This document shows, piece by piece, positions 30,492-50,994 of a DNA stretch of 64,000 nt. How positions within the stretch are numbered: the stretch's first letter is position 1; every line of letters begins with the position of its first letter. Position numbers and translations under genes: made by a program. The notes under the pieces were generated by a model that was not told the DNA's origin, ran no database searches, and was given only the letters and a program-made list of their open reading frames with translations. Location of the stretch: positions 77,394 through 141,393 of IMG/VR virus record IMGVR_UViG_3300048694_000674; one strand, 5' to 3'. The DNA is from a virus.

Positions 30492-31046
30492 ATGGCATCG
30501 AAAAAGCATTACGTAAATAATAAAGATCTTTATCTAGCGATGGTGAAATTTAAAGAAGCTGTTGACAAAGCGCAAAAAGAAAACAAGCCACTCCCAATAG
30601 TTCCTGACTATGTTGGTACTTGTTTTATGTTGATATGCAATAAGCTTTCAACCAAACCAAACTTTATGAATTATTCATATAGAGAAGATATGGTTGCTGA
30701 TGGTATAGAGAACTGTGTTGCTGCAGCTCACTCTTTTGATCCATCGAAGTCAAACAATCCATTCGCTTACTTTACGCAAATTGCTTGGAATGCTTTTATT
30801 AGAAGAATCGCCAAGGAAAAGAAACAGTCATATATCAAACATAAAAACTTTGAACACAGCAATTTACTTGACGAATTACTAGAAGAGAGTTATAATACAG
30901 GTAAGTCGACTTATAATGAATATTCAGACGATATTATCAGAAATTTTGAAGATAAATTGGTCAAGAACTCGAAGAAAACAAAGGTAAAACTTGAAAAATT
31001 TATAGAGGAAGACGACAGTGAACAAACTACATCTGGTTCCAGCTAA
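30492..31046 (+). CDS. gp55: Late-transcription sigma factor gp55
   Basis: HYVNNK, PNFMNYSYREDMVADGIENC, NPFAYFTQI..NAFIRRI.KEKKQ. Confidence 0.95.
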   Translation: MASKKHYVNNKDLYLAMVKFKEAVDKAQKENKPLPIVPDYVGTCFMLICNKLSTKPNFMNYSYREDMVADGIENCVAAAHSFDPSKSNNPFAYFTQIAWNAFIRRIAKEKKQSYIKHKNFEHSNLLDELLEESYNTGKSTYNEYSDDIIRNFEDKLVKNSKKTKVKLEKFIEEDDSEQTTSGSS

Positions 31047-44746: not shown

Positions 44747-45108
44747 CTATGCAACTTTGCCCAGCATTTGTCACAACTACAAATTTGCGTAAGCGTAAGT
44801 CAACCATGACTGGCAAACAGAAGCTACAACTTCTTGCCCATCAACAGTGGGTTGACTCCATGAAAAAAGGTATGACAAAAGATAAAAAAGTGCTTGACAA
44901 ATTATGGAAAACCGAGTATACTAATAATATGGTTGTCGATCGATCTGCTATGCAGAAGTCAGGTTTGGTTTCTGGAGCTTGCGCAAAGCCAGAGGAAAAA
45001 GTATATACTGGCACCAAGCTTCTTGGTATCGCTACTATGCATAAGAGTAATATGGTTCCTGTCTTCAAAGCTGAAGATGCTGCCGATATTGCTAGTATGA
45101 GGAGATAA
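44743..45108 (+). CDS. Conserved T4-like hypothetical protein
   Basis: YTG.KLLGIATMHKSN.VPVF motif. Confidence 0.6.
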   Translation: MTMQLCPAFVTTTNLRKRKSTMTGKQKLQLLAHQQWVDSMKKGMTKDKKVLDKLWKTEYTNNMVVDRSAMQKSGLVSGACAKPEEKVYTGTKLLGIATMHKSNMVPVFKAEDAADIASMRR

Positions 45109-45111
45109 GCT

Positions 45112-45291
45112 ATGGGTAATTATTATATTCAAGCACAGGATAAGTCGGGTGTTTGGCGTACATATCATGTAACACCAGCAAGTCCAAATATGCAAAGAGT
45201 TTTGTCAGAAATGCAATCGTTGAAGCGATCATTTCCTGATTATCGAGTTCGTACCATTGATGATAATGGACGAGTGGTAGATATTCTATAA
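45112..45291 (+). CDS. Small hypothetical protein (59 aa)
   Basis: GAGGAG RBS, open frame. Confidence 0.5.
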   Translation: MGNYYIQAQDKSGVWRTYHVTPASPNMQRVLSEMQSLKRSFPDYRVRTIDDNGRVVDIL

Positions 45292-45357
45292 AAGAATATC
45301 AAATTGTGAAATATATCTCATCAAGATGTATAAATAATGTTTAACATGGAGAAACTA

Positions 45358-45618
45358 ATGTCTAAGACTAATCAGGTATTGCAAGCATTTTTGAATGGTG
45401 AAGCTCTTACTGCTTCTCAAATTACAGCTCGTTATGGTATTGCGAATCCTCATGACACTGTTTATAATCTTCGTAACTCTGGATACGCTGTGTATCTGAA
45501 TACTAAGAAGAATTCGAAAGGTGTCAGTGTTTCCAAGTATCGTCTCGGCGCGCCAACTCGTAAGGTTGTAGCAGCTGGGATCGCCGCTCTAGGTGTTCGG
45601 GAAGCTGGTCTCGTCTAA
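45358..45618 (+). CDS. Winged helix-turn-helix protein
   Basis: LTASQITARYGIANP..TVYNLR..GY.VY...YRLG. Confidence 0.65.
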   Translation: MSKTNQVLQAFLNGEALTASQITARYGIANPHDTVYNLRNSGYAVYLNTKKNSKGVSVSKYRLGAPTRKVVAAGIAALGVREAGLV

Positions 45619-45639
45619 AAGATAAGAAATAACTTATCG

Positions 45640-45672
45640 AAGGGGCGGGACTGAAAAGTACCCGCCTTTTTT
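45640..45672 (+). terminator. Intrinsic terminator
   Basis: GGCGGG-ACT..AGT-CCCGCC followed by T run. Confidence 0.65.
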
Positions 45673-45677
45673 AGTGC

Positions 45678-45730
45678 TTTACTTTTTTAGTGAAGTATGG
45701 TAATATAAAGAATATGCTGTTTGACATTGT
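45678..45730 (+). promoter_or_regulatory. tRNA operon promoter followed by boxA-like element
   Basis: TTTACT-N17-TAATAT then TGCTGTTTGACATTGT. Confidence 0.55.
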
Positions 45731-45741
45731 TAGAAACCTTT

Positions 45742-45880
45742 GAGACAACTTCGGTTGTCTCTTCATGGGTGTATCAGAGCGTGGTCTGGCGCAAAGACTG
45801 CTAGGCTTCTCAGTCCGTCTTATTCGCGATACAACGACGGTGGTGACAGAAGTTAGATAGCTGGTACATCCTTGAAGAGA
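45742..45880 (+). ncRNA. Candidate structured ncRNA at head of tRNA operon
   Basis: C(UUCG)G hairpin; ~19-bp closing stem 45758-45777/45861-45880 enclosing two branches. Confidence 0.55.
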
Positions 45881-45886
45881 TAATGA

Positions 45887-45963
45887 TGGCGCATAGCTCA
45901 GTTGATTAGAGCACGCGATTGATAATCGTGAGGTCGATGGTTTGAGTCCATCTGTGCCAACCA
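45887..45963 (+). tRNA. tRNA-Ile(GAT)
   Basis: Cloverleaf, loop TTGATAA, CCA. Confidence 0.9.
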
Positions 45964-45967
45964 ATAC

Positions 45968-46041
45968 TGGGAAATCGTCTAATGGTAGGACTACGGTTTT
46001 TGGGTCCGTCTATCGGGGTTCGAGTCCCTGTTTCCCATCCA
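45968..46041 (+). tRNA. tRNA-Gln(TTG)
   Basis: TGGGAAA/TTTCCCA acceptor, TTCGAGT, CCA. Confidence 0.85.
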
Positions 46042-46049
46042 ATAAGTTT

Positions 46050-46124
46050 CTGCGTGTCGCCTAGCCTGGTGTGGCACTTCGTTTGGGACGAAGAATAACG
46101 GGAGTTCAAATCTCTCCACGCAGA
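46050..46124 (+). tRNA. tRNA-Pro(TGG), CCA not encoded
   Basis: CTTCG-TTTGGGA-CGAAG; followed directly by endonuclease cassette. Confidence 0.88.
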
Positions 46125-46831
46125 CATAAGCGACTCCGATGTATAAATAGTAATGTCAATAAAACTGTTATACATCGGAGTGCAGCTTGTTTTATACGAT
46201 CTATAAAATTACTAACAAAATAAACAATAAATTCTATATTGGGATGCATAAAACCAATAATTTAGATGATGGTTACATGGGTTCTGGTAAGCTTATTAGA
46301 AGAGCCATCTCTAAACATGGAATAGAAAATTTCACTAAAGAAATTCTTCATGTGTTTGATAACGAACAAGATATGAAAAATAAAGAGAAACAGCTTGTTA
46401 TTCTTTCTGAAAACACCTACAATCTTTGTGATGGTGGTAAAGGCGGATTTGGTTACATCAATTCGAATCCAGAAAAGTTTTTAACAGAAAAGAGATTAAA
46501 ATCTCTTTGGACATCAGAAAAAAGAATAAATCGTTGGCGGGAAAAATATAAAAATGATGTAAAATTTAGAAATGATTGTTTAGAAAGATCTAGGCATGCA
46601 TTGAAAAAATATAAAGAAAAATATCCAAAAAGTGCATTTTTTGGGCGAACCCATTCTGAGGAAACAAAAAATAAGATGCGTAAGTCGAAAAATGCTGGTG
46701 AAAAAAATTCACAGTACGGAACTTGTTGGATAACCAATGGTCAAGAAAATAAAAAGATCAAAAAAGAAGAACTTGACAAATTTATCGAATTAGGTTATTA
46801 TAAAGGTAGAATAATTAAATTACAAGAATGA
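46125..46831 (+). mobile_element. SegB-like GIY-YIG endonuclease cassette 1 (CDS 46187-46831, TTG start)
   Basis: YTIYKITN..N.KFYIG.H.T...DGYMGSG; RBS-sequestering hairpin containing TATAAATA. Confidence 0.88.
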
Positions 46832-47000
46832 ACCGTAGGAATGACAGTCTGACTGTCTGATAGTCGGGTAATACAAGCAGAGTGGTTTCTGTGAGTACCG
46901 AGTCGCCTATGCCTCTTGTCGTTGCACTAACCAGCAACGATCGTGTGAGAGAGGGCGCTGTCGCCGAGCAGCAGGAGAGCGTAGGATATACGCATCGGCA
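46830..47000 (+). ncRNA. Candidate structured ncRNA
   Basis: GC-richer non-coding stretch with nested stems (TCGTTGC/GCAACGA in CCTCT/AGAGG; GCGTA/TACGC in GCCGA/TCGGC). Confidence 0.45.
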
Positions 47001-47007
47001 ATAATTT

Positions 47008-47091
47008 GGAGGTATGCGAGCAAGGTGCTCAAACGGTCTTGAAAACCGTGCCACCGCAAGGTTGATGGTTCGATTCCTTGTACCTCCGCCA
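47008..47091 (+). tRNA. tRNA-Ser(TGA)
   Basis: ACGGT-CTTGAAA-ACCGT, long variable arm, GCCA. Confidence 0.88.
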
Positions 47092-47094
47092 AAT

Positions 47095-47168
47095 ATCAGT
47101 GTCGTATAATGGTAGTACAACTGTCTCCAAAACCGTTAGTGTGGGTTCGATTCCTACCACTGGTGCCA
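47095..47168 (+). tRNA. tRNA-Trp(CCA)
   Basis: Loop CTCCAAA, TTCGATT, GCCA. Confidence 0.85.
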
Positions 47169-47209
47169 TCAATAAATATTACAAATACAACTCTATCGGA
47201 GTAAATCAA

Positions 47210-47572
47210 ATGAAAGCATTGGTAGTAGCAAGTATCGTAGCACTTTCATTAGCTGGTTGCGCAAGTACATCTGGTCCAAACCAAACAATTGGAACTGGTG
47301 TTGGTGCAGTTGGTGGATATGGTGTTGCAAGAGCATTAGGAGCAGGACCAGCTGGATCTGCATTAGGAGCTGTTGCTGGTGCTTTGATTGGTAATGAAGT
47401 TGGTAGAAGTATTGATGCTCCGAGACCACAGGTCATCGTTCAAGAGCCGAGATATATTGTACAACAACCAAGATATATTGCTCCTCCACCGCCTCGTCGT
47501 ATCAGCTGTTATAGCGTATGGGACAATTACCATGGTCGTTATGTAGAGCGCAGAGTTTGTAATAGATATTAA
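47210..47572 (+). CDS. Glycine-zipper lipoprotein (17-kDa surface antigen-like)
   Basis: Lipobox LAGC; GTGVGAVGG..GAVAGALIG zipper; AATAAATA upstream. Confidence 0.8.
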   Translation: MKALVVASIVALSLAGCASTSGPNQTIGTGVGAVGGYGVARALGAGPAGSALGAVAGALIGNEVGRSIDAPRPQVIVQEPRYIVQQPRYIAPPPPRRISCYSVWDNYHGRYVERRVCNRY

Positions 47573-47580
47573 AAGATTAT

Positions 47581-47659
47581 TCCCAGGAATCCGAGCATGG
47601 TGCATGGACTTGCCTGTTAAGCAATGATTAGGTGGGATCGTTACCCACACTGGGAGCCA
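47581..47659 (+). tRNA. tRNA-Asn(GTT)
   Basis: Loop CTGTTAA, GCCA; atypical T-loop. Confidence 0.8.
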
Positions 47660-47756
47660 AGCTCATAGGGCATAAAGACGTTATGTCGAGTAATCGCAAT
47701 TTGCGGCTAAATGATAACCAAATTGTCACCTTGTGTGGCTCCCTATCGAAATCAAT

Positions 47757-47832
47757 GCGAGATTAGCTCAGCTGGGAGAGCGTCTGTTTTACACGCAGAA
47801 TGTCGGCAGTTCGATCCTGTCATCTCGCACCA
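47757..47832 (+). tRNA. tRNA-Val(TAC)
   Basis: Loop TTTACAC, ACCA. Confidence 0.9.
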
Positions 47833-47889
47833 TTTGTTTTTAAACGACTAACATTAGATCCTATTCTTATCCGTTTTATATCATTCTTT

Positions 47890-47966
47890 GGTCTGTTAGT
47901 TCAGTTGGTCAGAACACTCGCCTGTCACGCGAGAGGTCATGGATTCGAGTTCCATACAGATCGCCA
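47890..47966 (+). tRNA. tRNA-Asp(GTC)
   Basis: CTCGC-CTGTCAC-GCGAG, GCCA. Confidence 0.9.
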
Positions 47967-47985
47967 CTTTATGATGGAGTATATA

Positions 47986-48306
47986 ATGAATTCGCACGTG
48001 AGTTATGAATACAATATGATGACACTTGTAGCCAATGCTTGGATCAATGGTGGTAATCTTAATGATCCTATCGTTGTCAATAATATGTGTGGTATGGTAT
48101 TATATACAACAGCAAGTAAGATCATTTTATATTTGTATGCAAATGAAGGTTTAGTGATTCCAGATGATATTCTAGAAATCTTAAATAAGGTTGTGCTTCA
48201 GATTACAACTCTTGTTCCAGAACTTCGTACAGAAGTCCAAGAAGAAAAGTTACAACCAAAAGATTTTTTGAAGTTACAAAAATTTATCGATGATAATATA
48301 AGTTAA
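47986..48306 (+). CDS. Hypothetical protein (true start MNSHV)
   Basis: GGAG RBS; longer predicted ORF runs through tRNAs. Confidence 0.55.
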   Translation: MNSHVSYEYNMMTLVANAWINGGNLNDPIVVNNMCGMVLYTTASKIILYLYANEGLVIPDDILEILNKVVLQITTLVPELRTEVQEEKLQPKDFLKLQKFIDDNIS

Positions 48307-48307
48307 T

Positions 48308-48379
48308 GTTGCTTGGGTGGGACGGTAACGCGCAGGTCTGCAAAACCTTGAGAATCCAGTTCAACTCTGGAAAGCAACT
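48308..48379 (+). tRNA. tRNA-Cys(GCA), CCA not encoded
   Basis: Loop CTGCAAA, U73; followed directly by endonuclease cassette. Confidence 0.8.
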
Positions 48380-49079
48380 CATAAGCGACTCTGATGTATA
48401 AATAGCTATATGTAAGTCTCTTTATACATCGGAGTGCAGCTTGTTTTATACAATCTATAAAATTACTAATAATCTTAATGATAAGTTTTATGTTGGTAAA
48501 CATAAAACTATCGATCTTAACGATGGTTATATGGGTTCTGGTAAACTTATCAAACACGCCATAGAAAAATATGGCTTAGAAAACTTTACTAAAGAGATTT
48601 TGCATGTTTTTGATAATGAAGAAGACATGAATAATAAAGAGAAAGCACTTGTTGTATTATCAGAAGAGTCATATAATCTATGTCTAGGCGGTCATGGTGG
48701 ATTCGGTTATATCAATAGTAATGAATCGCTGAGAATAGAAAAGAATAAAAAAGCCATGAGAACTGTTATCACCAAATACAAAGAAAAAATGAGTGAATGG
48801 GGTTCTAAGGGCGGTAAAAAGAAATATGAAAAATATGGTGTTAATGAAAAATGGCTTCAAGCTGGACGAACTTCATTTTTGGGAAAACAACATTCGAAAG
48901 AAACTAAAGAATCGATAGGTTTGAAGAATTCTATACACCAGACTGGATCTAAGAATTCTCAATATGGAACCTGTTGGATTACCAACGGTAAAGAAAATAA
49001 AAAGATCAAGAAAGAAGAACTTGACATTTGGATAGAAAAGGGCTATTATAGAGGTAGAATAATTGCGGGTCTGGTATAG
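48380..49079 (+). mobile_element. SegB-like GIY-YIG endonuclease cassette 2 (CDS 48441-49079, TTG start)
   Basis: Paralog of cassette 1 with same leader; stop codon lies inside tRNA-Gly. Confidence 0.88.
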
Positions 49080-49140
49080 AAAGATGTGCCCTAGCCTTCC
49101 AAGCTAGAGAGGACCAGAGCGTTACTGGCGACCCGCTCCA
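49065..49140 (+). tRNA. tRNA-Gly(TCC)
   Basis: GCGGGTC/GACCCGC, CTAGC-CTTCCAA-GCTAG, TCCA. Confidence 0.85.
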
Positions 49141-49144
49141 TTCT

Positions 49145-49215
49145 TGTCGCTGTCAGTACTGATGGGAAGTACAGATGGACAACACTAGGACACCGTTCGA
49201 ATCGGAGCAGCGACA
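49145..49215 (+). ncRNA. tRNA-like element without a clear anticodon arm
   Basis: TGTCGCTG/CAGCGACA stem, GTACT/AGTAC D-like arm, CCG-TTCGAAT-CGG T-arm, no CCA. Confidence 0.5.
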
Positions 49216-49225
49216 CTCAAATAAT

Positions 49226-49302
49226 GCGCATGTAGTCCAATGGCAGGAGACGACAGTCTTAGAAGCTGTACAGTGTAAGTTCGAGTCTTACCATGCGCAC
49301 CA
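49226..49302 (+). tRNA. tRNA-Leu(TAG), short variable loop
   Basis: ACAGT-CTTAGAA-GCTGT, ACCA. Confidence 0.85.
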
Positions 49303-49306
49303 ATAT

Positions 49307-49380
49307 GCCATCTTAGTGTAATGGTAGCACAAGAGTTTGTGGCACTCTTAGCACTGGATCGTAACCAGTAGATGGTACCA
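49307..49380 (+). tRNA. tRNA-His(GTG), no G-1, A73
   Basis: AAGAG-TTTGTGGCA-CTCTT anticodon arm; T at -1; ACCA end. Confidence 0.88.
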
Positions 49381-49389
49381 TAAGAATAT

Positions 49390-49473
49390 GCTGAGGACGC
49401 CTGAGTGGACGGGCACCCGACTGTAAATCGGACGCTTATAGCATGGTAGGTTCGAACCCTACTCTCAGCACCA
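49390..49473 (+). tRNA. tRNA-Tyr(GTA)
   Basis: CCGA-CTGTAAA-TCGG, variable arm, ACCA. Confidence 0.88.
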
Positions 49474-49477
49474 AATT

Positions 49478-49550
49478 GCCGATGTAGCTCAGTTGGGAGA
49501 GCAATCGCTTCATACGCGACAGGTCGCTGGTTCAAGTCCAGCTTTCGGCA
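49478..49550 (+). tRNA. tRNA-Met(CAT) (elongator Met or Ile2), CCA not encoded
   Basis: Loop TTCATAC. Confidence 0.8.
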
Positions 49551-49552
49551 CT

Positions 49553-49628
49553 GGGGGATTAGCTCAGTTGGGAGAGCGACTGCCTTGCACGCAGTAGGTC
49601 AACGGTTCGATTCCGTTATCCTCCACCA
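49553..49628 (+). tRNA. tRNA-Ala(TGC)
   Basis: G3:U70, loop CTTGCAC, ACCA. Confidence 0.92.
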
Positions 49629-49635
49629 TTTTTTT

Positions 49636-49711
<76 letters not shown>

Positions 49712-49826
49712 GAGATCGAAATGTGGGGACACCGCACAATAGATAGGCGCCATCTGCGCTGCGCAGGTATAATGCAAGGGTGTTAGGTTTTGATAGTTTG
49801 TACCTTAAACAACTATCAGAGTTTAT

Positions 49827-49902
49827 TGCGGGGTAGAGAAGCGGCATCTCGTCAGCCTCATAAGCTGAAGATCGTGGGTTCGAGTCCCACCCTACGCAAC
49901 CA
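49827..49902 (+). tRNA. tRNA-Met(CAT), initiator-like
   Basis: TGCGGGGTAGAG..TCGTCAGC-CTCATAA-GCTGA..AACCA. Confidence 0.85.
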
Positions 49903-49960
49903 AATTAGCTATTTACTTTTATTCCGTTATCAGGTATACTATGTGTATATGATGGAGTTC

Positions 49961-50200
49961 ATGACTATGAGTAATGTAGTTTATCTATATAACAGGATAA
50001 ATAGGAAGCTTGGCGAAATAAATGGAGTAGTTGTTGAGCATCCTCAAACATGCTACGAATATCTACTCCTTTGTAAAAGGTTTCTAACAGACAACGACTA
50101 TAGAGAAGTTCTCTGTGCTATTATGGATCTCGATTACTATAACAAAGCCGAAAAACAGATACAAAAGGTTGTTGACGCTTATCGAGAATTTCGAGTCTGA
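49961..50200 (+). CDS. Hypothetical protein
   Basis: Early-type promoter TTTACT-N17-TATACT and GGAG RBS upstream. Confidence 0.55.
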   Translation: MTMSNVVYLYNRINRKLGEINGVVVEHPQTCYEYLLLCKRFLTDNDYREVLCAIMDLDYYNKAEKQIQKVVDAYREFRV

Positions 50201-50227
50201 ATAAATATATTACTAGTATGGTTTTTT

Positions 50228-50302
50228 GGACCCATAGCTCAATGGTAGAGTAGCGGTCTTTTAAACCGTTGGTTTCGGGTTCGAGTCCCGATGGGTTCAC
50301 CA
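50228..50302 (+). tRNA. tRNA-Lys(TTT)
   Basis: GCGGT-CTTTTAA-ACCGT, ACCA. Confidence 0.9.
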
Positions 50303-50448
50303 TTTCTTTTTAAAGTTTTTTATTATGAATATTCGTGAAATATTATGTGTTTTTATTATGTGTAATTGGATGGCAATATCAGTTGGTATTATGCTGTTTG
50401 CCATTCTAATCTTGAAGTGACTATCTTAAACAACTATGGAGTAAACAA

Positions 50449-50994
50449 ATGCAAAAGACTATCGTAACGGCGCTTGCTATTCTTGCGTCAACAGCTGTAG
50501 CTTCCGCTACTGATCTGCCAAGCAAGAAGGCACCTGCTGTTCCTGTATTTGCGCAGAGCCAGTATTATGTCGGTGGCAATGTCGGGGCAACAACAGGAGC
50601 AGATCGCGTCTATTCTGGTGGAGCTGTTGCTGGTTGGAACGTCCTTCCGTTCCTCGCAGTAGAAGGTACATATGATCTTTCTCGCCCAGATGAAAAGATT
50701 GCAGGAAAATTCAACTACCAAAACACAGGTGCAGTAAATGTTGTGCCAAAGGTTGTTGTTCCTGGAACTGACATCAGCGTATATGCAATTGCTGGTCTCG
50801 GCTATCGTATGAACAGTGTTTCTTCCGTAAAGGATTACTCTGTTTATAACATCGGTGGTGGTGTTCGCTACGAACTATCAAAGTCAATCGATGTTGATGG
50901 ACGTTACCGCAGAGTTGAAGCTCTTGAGGACAAGAATCGTACAGCTAAGTCGGCTGAGGATCGCGTAACTCTTGGCGTAAACTATAAGTTCTAA
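50449..50994 (+). CDS. Outer-membrane beta-barrel protein (Omp25/RopB-like)
   Basis: Signal peptide, A.DLPSKKAP, YVGGNVG, C-terminal LGVNYKF. Confidence 0.85.
   Translation: MQKTIVTALAILASTAVASATDLPSKKAPAVPVFAQSQYYVGGNVGATTGADRVYSGGAVAGWNVLPFLAVEGTYDLSRPDEKIAGKFNYQNTGAVNVVPKVVVPGTDISVYAIAGLGYRMNSVSSVKDYSVYNIGGGVRYELSKSIDVDGRYRRVEALEDKNRTAKSAEDRVTLGVNYKF

Follow-up and report, generated by a model that had tools for sequence, protein, structure and literature searches.

Two SegB-like homing endonuclease cassettes located directly behind tRNA genes in the tRNA array of a freshwater T4-like phage

The DNA analyzed in this work is a stretch of 64,000 nucleotides (nt), hereafter called the window, of the IMG/VR virus record IMGVR_UViG_3300048694_000674 (genome G000, in which the window has an offset of 77393). 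This 141-kb record comes from freshwater metagenomes, is about 85% complete, and represents an uncultured freshwater T4-like phage. Between positions 45887 and 50302 the window carries an array of tRNA genes, all of them on the plus strand, in which ARAGORN recognized 15 tRNAs and Rfam one extra, whereas at least two cloverleaves were called by neither program. Two genes encoding GIY-YIG endonucleases related to SegB of phage T4 are located in this array, each of them in a compact cassette placed immediately downstream of a tRNA gene, and these cassettes are the subject of the present analysis.

Anatomy of the cassettes and identity of their proteins

Cassette 1 follows a tRNA-Pro(UGG) gene (46050-46124) and cassette 2 a tRNA-Cys(GCA) gene (48308-48379). 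Both tRNAs were called by ARAGORN and Rfam, and both end with the discriminator base (A46124 and T48379, respectively), which is followed by CAT, as the CCA end is not encoded. In the pairwise alignment of the cassettes, which lie on the plus strand together with their hairpins and promoter candidates, similarity begins at 46125 and 48380, i.e., at the base after the discriminator, and ends at 46816 and 49064 with the sequence GGTAGAATAATT. The shared block thus covers positions 46125-46816 in cassette 1 and 48380-49064 in cassette 2, where it fills the entire gap between the tRNA-Cys gene and a tRNA-Gly-like gene. Both blocks open with a 26-nt word, CATAAGCGACTCYGATGTATAAATAG, found at 46125 and 48380 and nowhere else in the window (two occurrences, zero expected). 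That both cassettes begin right after the discriminator had been proposed in the initial annotation of this DNA; ARAGORN, Rfam, and the alignment agree on this point, and every coordinate of that annotation was borne out by the tRNA calls, pairwise alignment, word search, folding, and promoter scan.

Each cassette comprises a leader of 61-62 nt, counted from the tRNA end to the start of the open reading frame (ORF), and a SegB-like GIY-YIG ORF with a TTG start, namely ORF 1 (46187-46831; 214 amino acids (aa)) and ORF 2 (48441-49079; 212 aa). According to the initial annotation, neither cassette has a stop codon of its own. This is true of cassette 2, whose TAG (49077-49079) is located inside the tRNA-Gly-like gene, but not of cassette 1, which stops by itself at a TGA (46829-46831) that lies in unique, non-tRNA sequence, 15 nt downstream of the shared block. 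The gene entered by ORF 2 (49065-49140, plus strand) had been named tRNA-Gly. It does form a UCC cloverleaf ending with an encoded CCA, but its D and T loops are atypical (T-loop AGCGTTA) and, despite the cloverleaf fold, neither ARAGORN nor Rfam called it.

The two proteins are 60% identical to each other and 42-48% identical to T4 SegB (BLASTP: 42% over the full length, E-value 1e-47). When the T4 genome was searched in six frames, SegB came out as the top one of five Seg-type matches (137.8 bits over residues 1-211), the second-best being a partial match of 81.4 bits. Both ORFs match PHROG 314 'homing endonuclease' (E-values 9e-44 and 7e-40), which is also the best PHROG of T4 SegB, and Pfam matches at or near the cut-offs were obtained for GIY-YIG and SegE_GIY-YIG (both ORFs) and for NUMOD3, a C-terminal DNA-binding module (ORF 1 only; 21.8 bits vs. 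a cut-off of 20.4). The GIY-YIG core residues Y6, Y17, G19, E67, and N79 are invariant among the window proteins, T4 SegB, and six relatives, and the C-terminal columns H156, W181, and G203..G207-R208, the last of them within a G-W/Y-x-K-G-R tail, are invariant in both window proteins. In a tree of 71 family members, T4 SegB falls within the family. A PDB sequence search with ORF 1 returned only a chance-level match to RNase R (E-value 0.098) and did not match I-TevI. Outside the window, on the minus strand, a partial GIY-YIG match (G000:C1:6-158; 48% over residues 4-47, E-value 4e-4) probably represents a third endonuclease gene, truncated at the contig end.

Association with tRNA ends and loss of the encoded CCA

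Two scans of IMG/VR with both proteins yielded 152 loci, and the relatives counted below are the 77 unique, full-length ones that scored at least 130 bits, with duplicates removed. Homologues placed regardless of tRNA ends, which would speak against a preference for tRNA 3' ends as initially annotated, were looked for, and it was found that 55 of the 77 relatives begin 50-75 nt past the end of a tRNA called by ARAGORN. The stop codon lies inside the next tRNA in 25 relatives and at most 15 nt from it in 10 more (35/77). All strong relatives (78/78) are held by tRNA arrays, in comparison with 6/27 weak ones. The tRNAs upstream of the cassettes span 15 isotypes, with at least 29 isotype changes on the tree, and very close relatives keep one isotype (Pro-Pro, Asp-Asp-Asp, Ala three times, and Gln three times). 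This is the pattern that would be expected for homing at a given junction combined with occasional jumps to other tRNA junctions.

The junction itself follows a rule. In most of the 58 distinct leaders, C-A-T/C stands directly 3' of the tRNA, which means that the encoded CCA is replaced by CA(T/C). Only five of 57 cassette-preceding tRNAs encode CCA, vs. 547 of 575 others (Fisher 1.5e-49), and these five exceptions are followed by a different leader, devoid of the hairpin described below. Within the window, two of the 15 ARAGORN tRNAs are CCA-less, and they are precisely those preceding the cassettes. It was shown for T4 SegB that the enzyme binds the T-arm motif GGTTCRANTCC and preferentially cuts just after CCAR, while without CCAR it cuts elsewhere and less well (PMC2330249). 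The cassette junction therefore sits at the cut position of this enzyme family and, as CCA reads CA(T/C) in the cassette-bearing allele, the preferred cut sequence is gone. The CCA-adding enzyme family PF01743 was not found in the phage record, which is, as mentioned, about 85% complete. A stable hairpin abutting a tRNA would hinder exonucleolytic 3' trimming, and a tRNA that has lost CCA could be cut behind the discriminator by an RNase Z/BN-type enzyme and subsequently be completed by CCA addition.

In the T4 genome, segB has tRNA-Ile upstream (ending with the discriminator, no CCA), a 41-nt leader that contains CATAAATA, and tRNA-Arg starting 5 nt after its stop codon. Its hairpin hides the Shine-Dalgarno (SD) sequence and AUG, and the processing of tRNA-Arg separates the stop codon (PMC2330249). 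A free-standing ORF between tRNAs, a CCA-less upstream tRNA, a hairpin hiding SD and start, and a stop at or in the next tRNA are thus common to T4 segB and the window cassettes. Unlike T4 segB, the window array has two diverged copies with TTG starts, a near-consensus sigma-70 promoter candidate in the last codons, and leaders of about 62 nt with the canonical T4-type late promoter box TATAAATA in place of 41 nt with CATAAATA. In 2026, SegB homologues were reported to show a broad statistical association, within +/-1 kb, with tRNA genes belonging to numerous isotypes (PMC13096335).

A SegB-like ORF with 44% identity to ORF 1 was also found in Rhizobium phage RHph_TM30 (NC_070966.1, positions 1501-2096; locus L158), where it is unannotated in RefSeq. 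Its TAG stop is inside an annotated tRNA-Ala, its upstream neighbor is an ORF and not a tRNA, and its leader contains neither the hairpin nor TATAAATA.

We conclude with high confidence that both window ORFs are free-standing homing endonuclease genes of the SegB GIY-YIG lineage, forming compact cassettes after tRNAs of a T4-like phage. As every feature of membership that could be tested was present, the elements belong to the known SegB kind; they are further examples of it and not a new kind of system. Several observations weigh against this reading. The Pfam GIY-YIG scores (22.1 and 20.2 bits) are slightly under the curated cut-off of 22.6. With an identity to SegB of only 42-48%, the target of the window proteins may differ, and the T-arms of tRNA-Pro and tRNA-Cys (AGTTCAAATCT and AGTTCAACTCT) deviate from the SegB core motif at two positions. 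The exact 21-nt 3' end of the window tRNA-Cys was unmatched in IMG/VR, and no cassette-free allele of a close relative was found there; since the empty-site allele was not recovered, mobility is deduced from the phylogeny. Finally, the phage is an uncultured metagenomic record and the evidence consists of sequence, from which the anatomy, homology, family-wide conservation, hairpin covariation, CCA rule, and gp55 presence were observed or computed directly.

Exit promoter candidate, exchange of modules and the entry hairpin

The final codons of both cassettes also spell TTGACA-N17-TATTAT, at 46773-46801 (exit promoter candidate 1, in codons L196-D197 and Y204-Y205) and at 49021-49049 (candidate 2, whose -10 ends 15 nt before the 5' end of the tRNA-Gly-like gene), and both the sequence and the positions match those first annotated. 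These are the top two sigma-70-like sites (11/12) in the region 45000-50500. In the entire genome, sites reaching at least 11/12 of TTGACA-N16-18-TATAAT number 20 on the coding strand (six perfect ones, and two being the cassette exits), compared with 4 on the opposite strand and 3.4 in shuffled sequences. As a side observation, the early promoters of this T4-like phage appear to be of the textbook sigma-70 type rather than to have the T4-style GTTTAC -35.

Among the relatives, 20 of 77 reach at least 10/12 at the homologous place. Two sub-lineages with peptide motifs one residue different in length have both retained the 17-nt spacing (..LD-5 residues-GYYKGR, encoding TATTAT, vs. ..VD-4 residues-GWYKGR, encoding TATAAA). 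Where the cassettes abut the next tRNA, the -10 ends 12-18 nt upstream of it, which would result in a leader of about 5-11 nt. Because cassettes of different phages, inserted at various tRNA junctions, have the candidate promoter at homologous codons, this promoter appears to move together with the cassette.

A different explanation is that the exit site arises as a by-product when an AT-rich genome encodes the conserved C-terminal peptide (E-L-D ... G-Y-Y-K-G-R), with transcription of the downstream tRNAs coming solely from upstream read-through and the late promoter of the cassette. The amino-acid sequence alone yields about 9/12 on average (mean best 9.1-9.5/12 upon synonymous resampling of the peptides), i.e., it is one or two codon choices short of 11/12, the codons TAT and GAA are common anyway, and the synonymous-codon tests gave only p 0.03-0.09 per cassette. 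Moreover, the site is limited to the above-mentioned 20 relatives, about one quarter of the total, no such site is present in T4 segB, and the relatedness of the sequences makes the counts non-independent. Against a by-product stands the choice of codons. The minor Asp codon GAC (24% usage) is present in 17 of 25 cases, the codon before it ends with TT in 19/25, and the codon after it starts with A in 18/25, although the residue varies (K, I, N, M). Synonymous-site identity at CTT-GAC is 0.83 and 0.72, vs. 0.18-0.5 at neighboring degenerate codons, and the Leu codon CTT is identical in 83% of pairs, where about 24% would be expected from usage. In addition, an interior control segment gave p<=0.05 in 0/77 relatives vs. 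9/77 for the tails, and promoters of this type are used by the phage, as shown by the excess of coding-strand sites over shuffles. On balance, we consider the exit promoter in the last codons somewhat more probably real than not, and its role in restarting transcription of the downstream tRNAs plausible, whereas the by-product explanation falls short of probable but has a sizeable chance of being right.

Promoters for downstream genes are known to lie inside T4 segG, segA, segE, mobB, and mobC; driving the next gene, such embedded promoters lower the cost of insertion and penalize deletion (PMC2988022). The candidate described here resembles the gene 32 promoters inside segG (PMC2988022), being placed in the 3' part of an endonuclease ORF in front of the next gene. 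Unlike the promoters embedded in the T4 seg and mob genes, it belongs to the conserved cassette and appears not to be a captured host promoter.

The two cassettes are a mosaic pair. Identity amounts to 82-85% in the leader with the first 120 nt and in the last approximately 100 nt of the shared block, but to only 32-48% in the central 240 nt. Cassette 1 groups with the post-tRNA-Pro cassettes of two other contigs (L004 and L005), with 73% identity vs. 60% to cassette 2; on these grounds, and because the tree does not place the two window cassettes as sisters, cassette 2 was rejected as a recent intragenomic duplicate of cassette 1. The initial annotation had stated that the element moved to a second tRNA. 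This holds family-wide, considering the isotype changes, but cassette 2 is no recent copy of cassette 1. Nevertheless, the ends of the two cassettes are slightly more alike mutually than to the phylogenetically closer L004 (75-80%). Other relatives show 85% identity to ORF 1 over residues 1-92, followed by complete divergence.

Four freshwater DNA runs, whose contigs stem from related, non-identical genomes, were compared with the window. A near-identical cassette 1 is present in contigs of other freshwater samples, and some pieces cease to match at 48380 and at 49058-49060. Two chimeric joints were found. In one, the first part of cassette 2 runs into the rear part of cassette 1 (48659 to 46702); in the other, the end of a cassette-1-like tail is joined to the tRNA-Gly-like gene (46812 to 49064). 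These joints indicate that cassette modules are exchanged between strains. In run X3, bins 48676-48923 were uncovered and their flanks covered, and no contig joins 48380 to 49065, which is not readable as an empty site.

Such exchange bears on the possibility that the cassettes are retained mainly for the benefit of the phage rather than as selfish elements, in that recombination provoked by the nuclease amplifies or reshuffles tRNAs and thereby evades tRNA-targeting defences, with the cassettes acting as direct repeats around a 2.25-kb tRNA segment. T6 SegB was reported to drive tandem tRNA-Tyr/segB amplification and evasion of Septu (PMC13096335), two or more cassettes are present in 17 of 116 related loci, the similarity of the cassette ends exceeds what the phylogeny predicts, and the chimeric joints fit as well. 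All this is compatible with homing and not exclusive of it, though, and the contigs with the joints stem from related strains, at 7-9 differences per 100 nt, rather than from simple deletions or duplications of this genome. As the main reason for the retention of the cassettes, phage benefit seems doubtful.

The leader of each cassette folds into a hairpin, located at 46126-46190 (about 25 pairs, -27.1 kcal/mol) and 48381-48444 (-25.5 kcal/mol). Its 3' arm contains GGAG (46177-46180 and 48431-48434) and the TTG start (46187-46189 and 48441-48443), and its upper 5' arm contains TATAAATA (46142-46149 and 48397-48404). None of 200 shuffles folds equally well (z -6.9 and -5.5). The folds and motif positions agree with the initial annotation, in which the hairpins hide GGAG and carry TATAAATA in the 5' arm. 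However, the minimum-energy fold is longer than the 14-15 base pairs (bp) annotated, of which the perfect 14-bp core of hairpin 1 (46133-46146/46168-46181) is an example, and in consequence the TTG start is buried along with GGAG.

An alignment of 29 diverse leaders, with a 13-pair helix, was used for the covariation analysis. In this helix 91.5% of the cells are paired, vs. 66.8% for shuffled sequences and 35-49% after sliding of the partners, both-side (compensatory) changes occur in 11 pairs, and the covariation score is 0.65 vs. 0.19 in shuffles. A purine-rich, SD-like run is always located in the 3' arm, where one sub-family has the ATG itself, and 50 of the 58 distinct leaders have an exact TATAAATA, whose position in the upper 5' arm is constant. 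A homologue of gp55, the T4 late sigma factor that reads TATAAATA, is encoded in the window at 30501-30920 on the plus strand (G000:107894-108313; 38% identity, E-value 6e-24). Genome-wide, TATAAATA occurs in 18 copies on the plus strand vs. 4 on the minus strand, and 11 copies are located 0-44 nt upstream of ATG ORFs (ten of them at 22-44 nt). A late transcript starting a few bases past TATAAATA would have its 5' end in the loop and would thus not include the 5' arm.

The late-promoter-plus-hairpin arrangement is established for I-TevI, and a 2010 review lists segB too (PMC2988022). The window cassettes resemble I-TevI of the T4 td intron (and also I-TevII, I-TevIII, and Aeh1 mobE; PMC2988022) in the predicted hairpin burying the ribosome-binding site and the predicted late promoter, while, unlike I-TevI in the td group I intron, they are free-standing after a tRNA; these likenesses and differences are read from sequence alone, and it is at this level only that the features of late-promoter and hairpin control are present. 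A point against such control is that the 2008 SegB paper maps no promoter close to the T4 segB start (PMC2330249).

The hairpin loop has the consensus GCAATGTCAATAAGACT (46150-46167 in the window; alignment columns 27-44), with A37, A38, and C41 invariant, and it remains conserved, beyond the needs of a simple gate, even between cassettes with a protein identity of only about 50%. Inspection of the leader alignment by eye made no target-like operator evident (a T-arm motif, as in I-TevI autorepression). A short-leader variant (L007:89-170 and L011) has a tRNA-like 3' end uncalled by ARAGORN, which directly precedes CATAAATAACTAT and an ATG, as though deletion of the hairpin had fused the CAT junction to the late promoter box.

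The conserved loop would also suit a hairpin that serves mainly as a signal for RNA processing or transcription (a 3' trailer, an RNase III site, a partial terminator, or a tRNA-mRNA insulator) and not as a translational gate. A perfect stem of at least 20 bp is long enough for RNase III, the hairpin abuts the tRNA 3' end in nearly all relatives, and a T-rich start region (TTGTTTTAT) follows it. On the other hand, classical intrinsic terminators were dropped as candidates, as a terminator-pattern scan called neither hairpin, and the SD-like run, often together with the start codon, is constant in the 3' arm. The fixed place of TATAAATA in the 5' arm is explained only by a late start, and the same arrangement has been demonstrated experimentally for I-TevI (PMC2988022). 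A function mainly in processing or transcription is unlikely, and the hairpin is better viewed as a predicted translational gate.

Decayed members of the family, with frameshifts or internal stops, were identified at L035:2498-3076, L105:2501 and 3852, L085:4241, and L149:2495. They keep the leader (L035 also TTGACG-N17-TATTAT), which means that the regulatory ends can outlive the ORF. That the window ORFs are likewise decaying relics without an active nuclease product, as their weak TTG starts buried in hairpins, the marginal Pfam scores, and these broken relatives might suggest, is very improbable, since both are full length and keep all family-invariant residues, the regulatory leader is intact and covarying, and several further intact relatives start with TTG.

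Other features of the array, proposed mechanism and significance

The tRNA-like genes missed by one or both finders are located at 49065-49140, approximately 47581-47659, and 49390-49470. An Asn(GUU)-like cloverleaf with the T-loop ATCGTTA, ending in CCA, was called by neither program, tRNA-Tyr(GTA) was detected by Rfam alone (33.9 bits), and the T-loop of tRNA-His is likewise odd (ATCGTAA). We wondered whether the altered T-arms of the array tRNAs lead to less self-cleavage by a nuclease that reads the T-arm. The 191-nt spacer between cassette 1 and tRNA-Ser (46817-47007, plus strand) is moderately structured (-61 kcal/mol, z -2.3) and has counterparts of about 93% identity on contigs of other freshwater samples; it had no match in Rfam or in the related loci. 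It would be the first RNA produced from exit promoter 1, and may be a stable RNA like species 1 and 2 of T4. Four unassigned spacers of the array gave zero matches in blastn searches against all 150 related loci. Two small ORFs (47210-47572 and 47987-48306), one of which bears a lipoprotein-type signal (MKALVVASIVALSLAGC...), are located between cassettes 1 and 2. Megablast of the region 45600-49600 against GenBank phages matched nothing.

On the basis of these data, the following mechanism may be proposed. By analogy with T4 SegB, the enzyme would recognize the T-arm DNA of a tRNA gene and cut near its CCA end, and repair would copy the cassette into the cut junction. On early, long transcripts of the tRNA operon, the leader would fold as a hairpin of about 20-25 bp that buries the SD sequence and the weak TTG, and thus no nuclease would be made from them. 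Late in infection, RNA polymerase with gp55 would initiate at TATAAATA within the hairpin, giving a transcript that lacks the 5' arm and is translatable. With less certainty, a host-type promoter would fire 5-10 nt before the end of the cassette and feed the downstream tRNAs, making the insertion nearly harmless and the deletion of the cassette costly. RNase P at the next tRNA and an RNase Z/BN-type cut after the CCA-less discriminator would trim both borders of the cassette; in cassette 2, RNase P cleavage would strip the stop codon from the mRNA.

A more far-reaching proposal, which we put forward tentatively and consider rather improbable as a whole, is that the cassette is a portable, self-insulating inter-tRNA module, with a CCA to CA left end, a late-only gate, and a promoter re-driving the downstream tRNAs, whose mRNA is excised by the tRNA enzymes. 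The change of CCA to CA would both remove the preferred cut site of the element's own nuclease and shift the tRNA from exonucleolytic trimming, blocked by the abutting hairpin, to RNase Z/BN cleavage and CCA addition. The excision would be a bacterial-virus version of the mitochondrial 'tRNA punctuation', and the removal of a borrowed stop by RNase P would act as an extra brake.

Homing-type nucleases in or beside tRNA arrays have been described before, i.e., F-TflI, F-TflII, and F-TflIV of T5 and the HNH genes of bacterial and mycobacteriophage arrays, which are thought to spread the arrays (PMC2330249, PMC8421152, PMC6409571). Compared by their descriptions, they belong to nuclease families different from that of the window proteins and have no known shared leader or junction rule. 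For T4, the location in the tRNA cluster, T-arm recognition, cutting at the CCA end, the hairpin at the ribosome-binding site, the conflict between tRNA maturation and the stop codon, the late-promoter logic, and embedded promoters are already published (PMC2330249, PMC2988022). What the present analysis adds is the base-level, family-wide architecture (the CCA to CA junction, the covarying late-promoter leader, and the ORF end in the next tRNA), together with a candidate promoter that, in one clade, appears to travel with the cassette; these family-wide rules were not found stated in the open-access full-text literature on SegB.

The finding extends a known system and is satisfying for specialists rather than surprising. 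It provides a clean, naturally much-replicated example of a selfish nuclease gene living inside an operon of essential RNAs at almost no cost. The rules aid annotation, as such ORFs and their TTG starts get missed (e.g., in Rhizobium phage RHph_TM30), and help to predict which phage tRNAs depend on CCA addition. They also help to study how SegB-type enzymes reshape tRNA arrays, a process recently tied to escape from tRNA-targeting defences.

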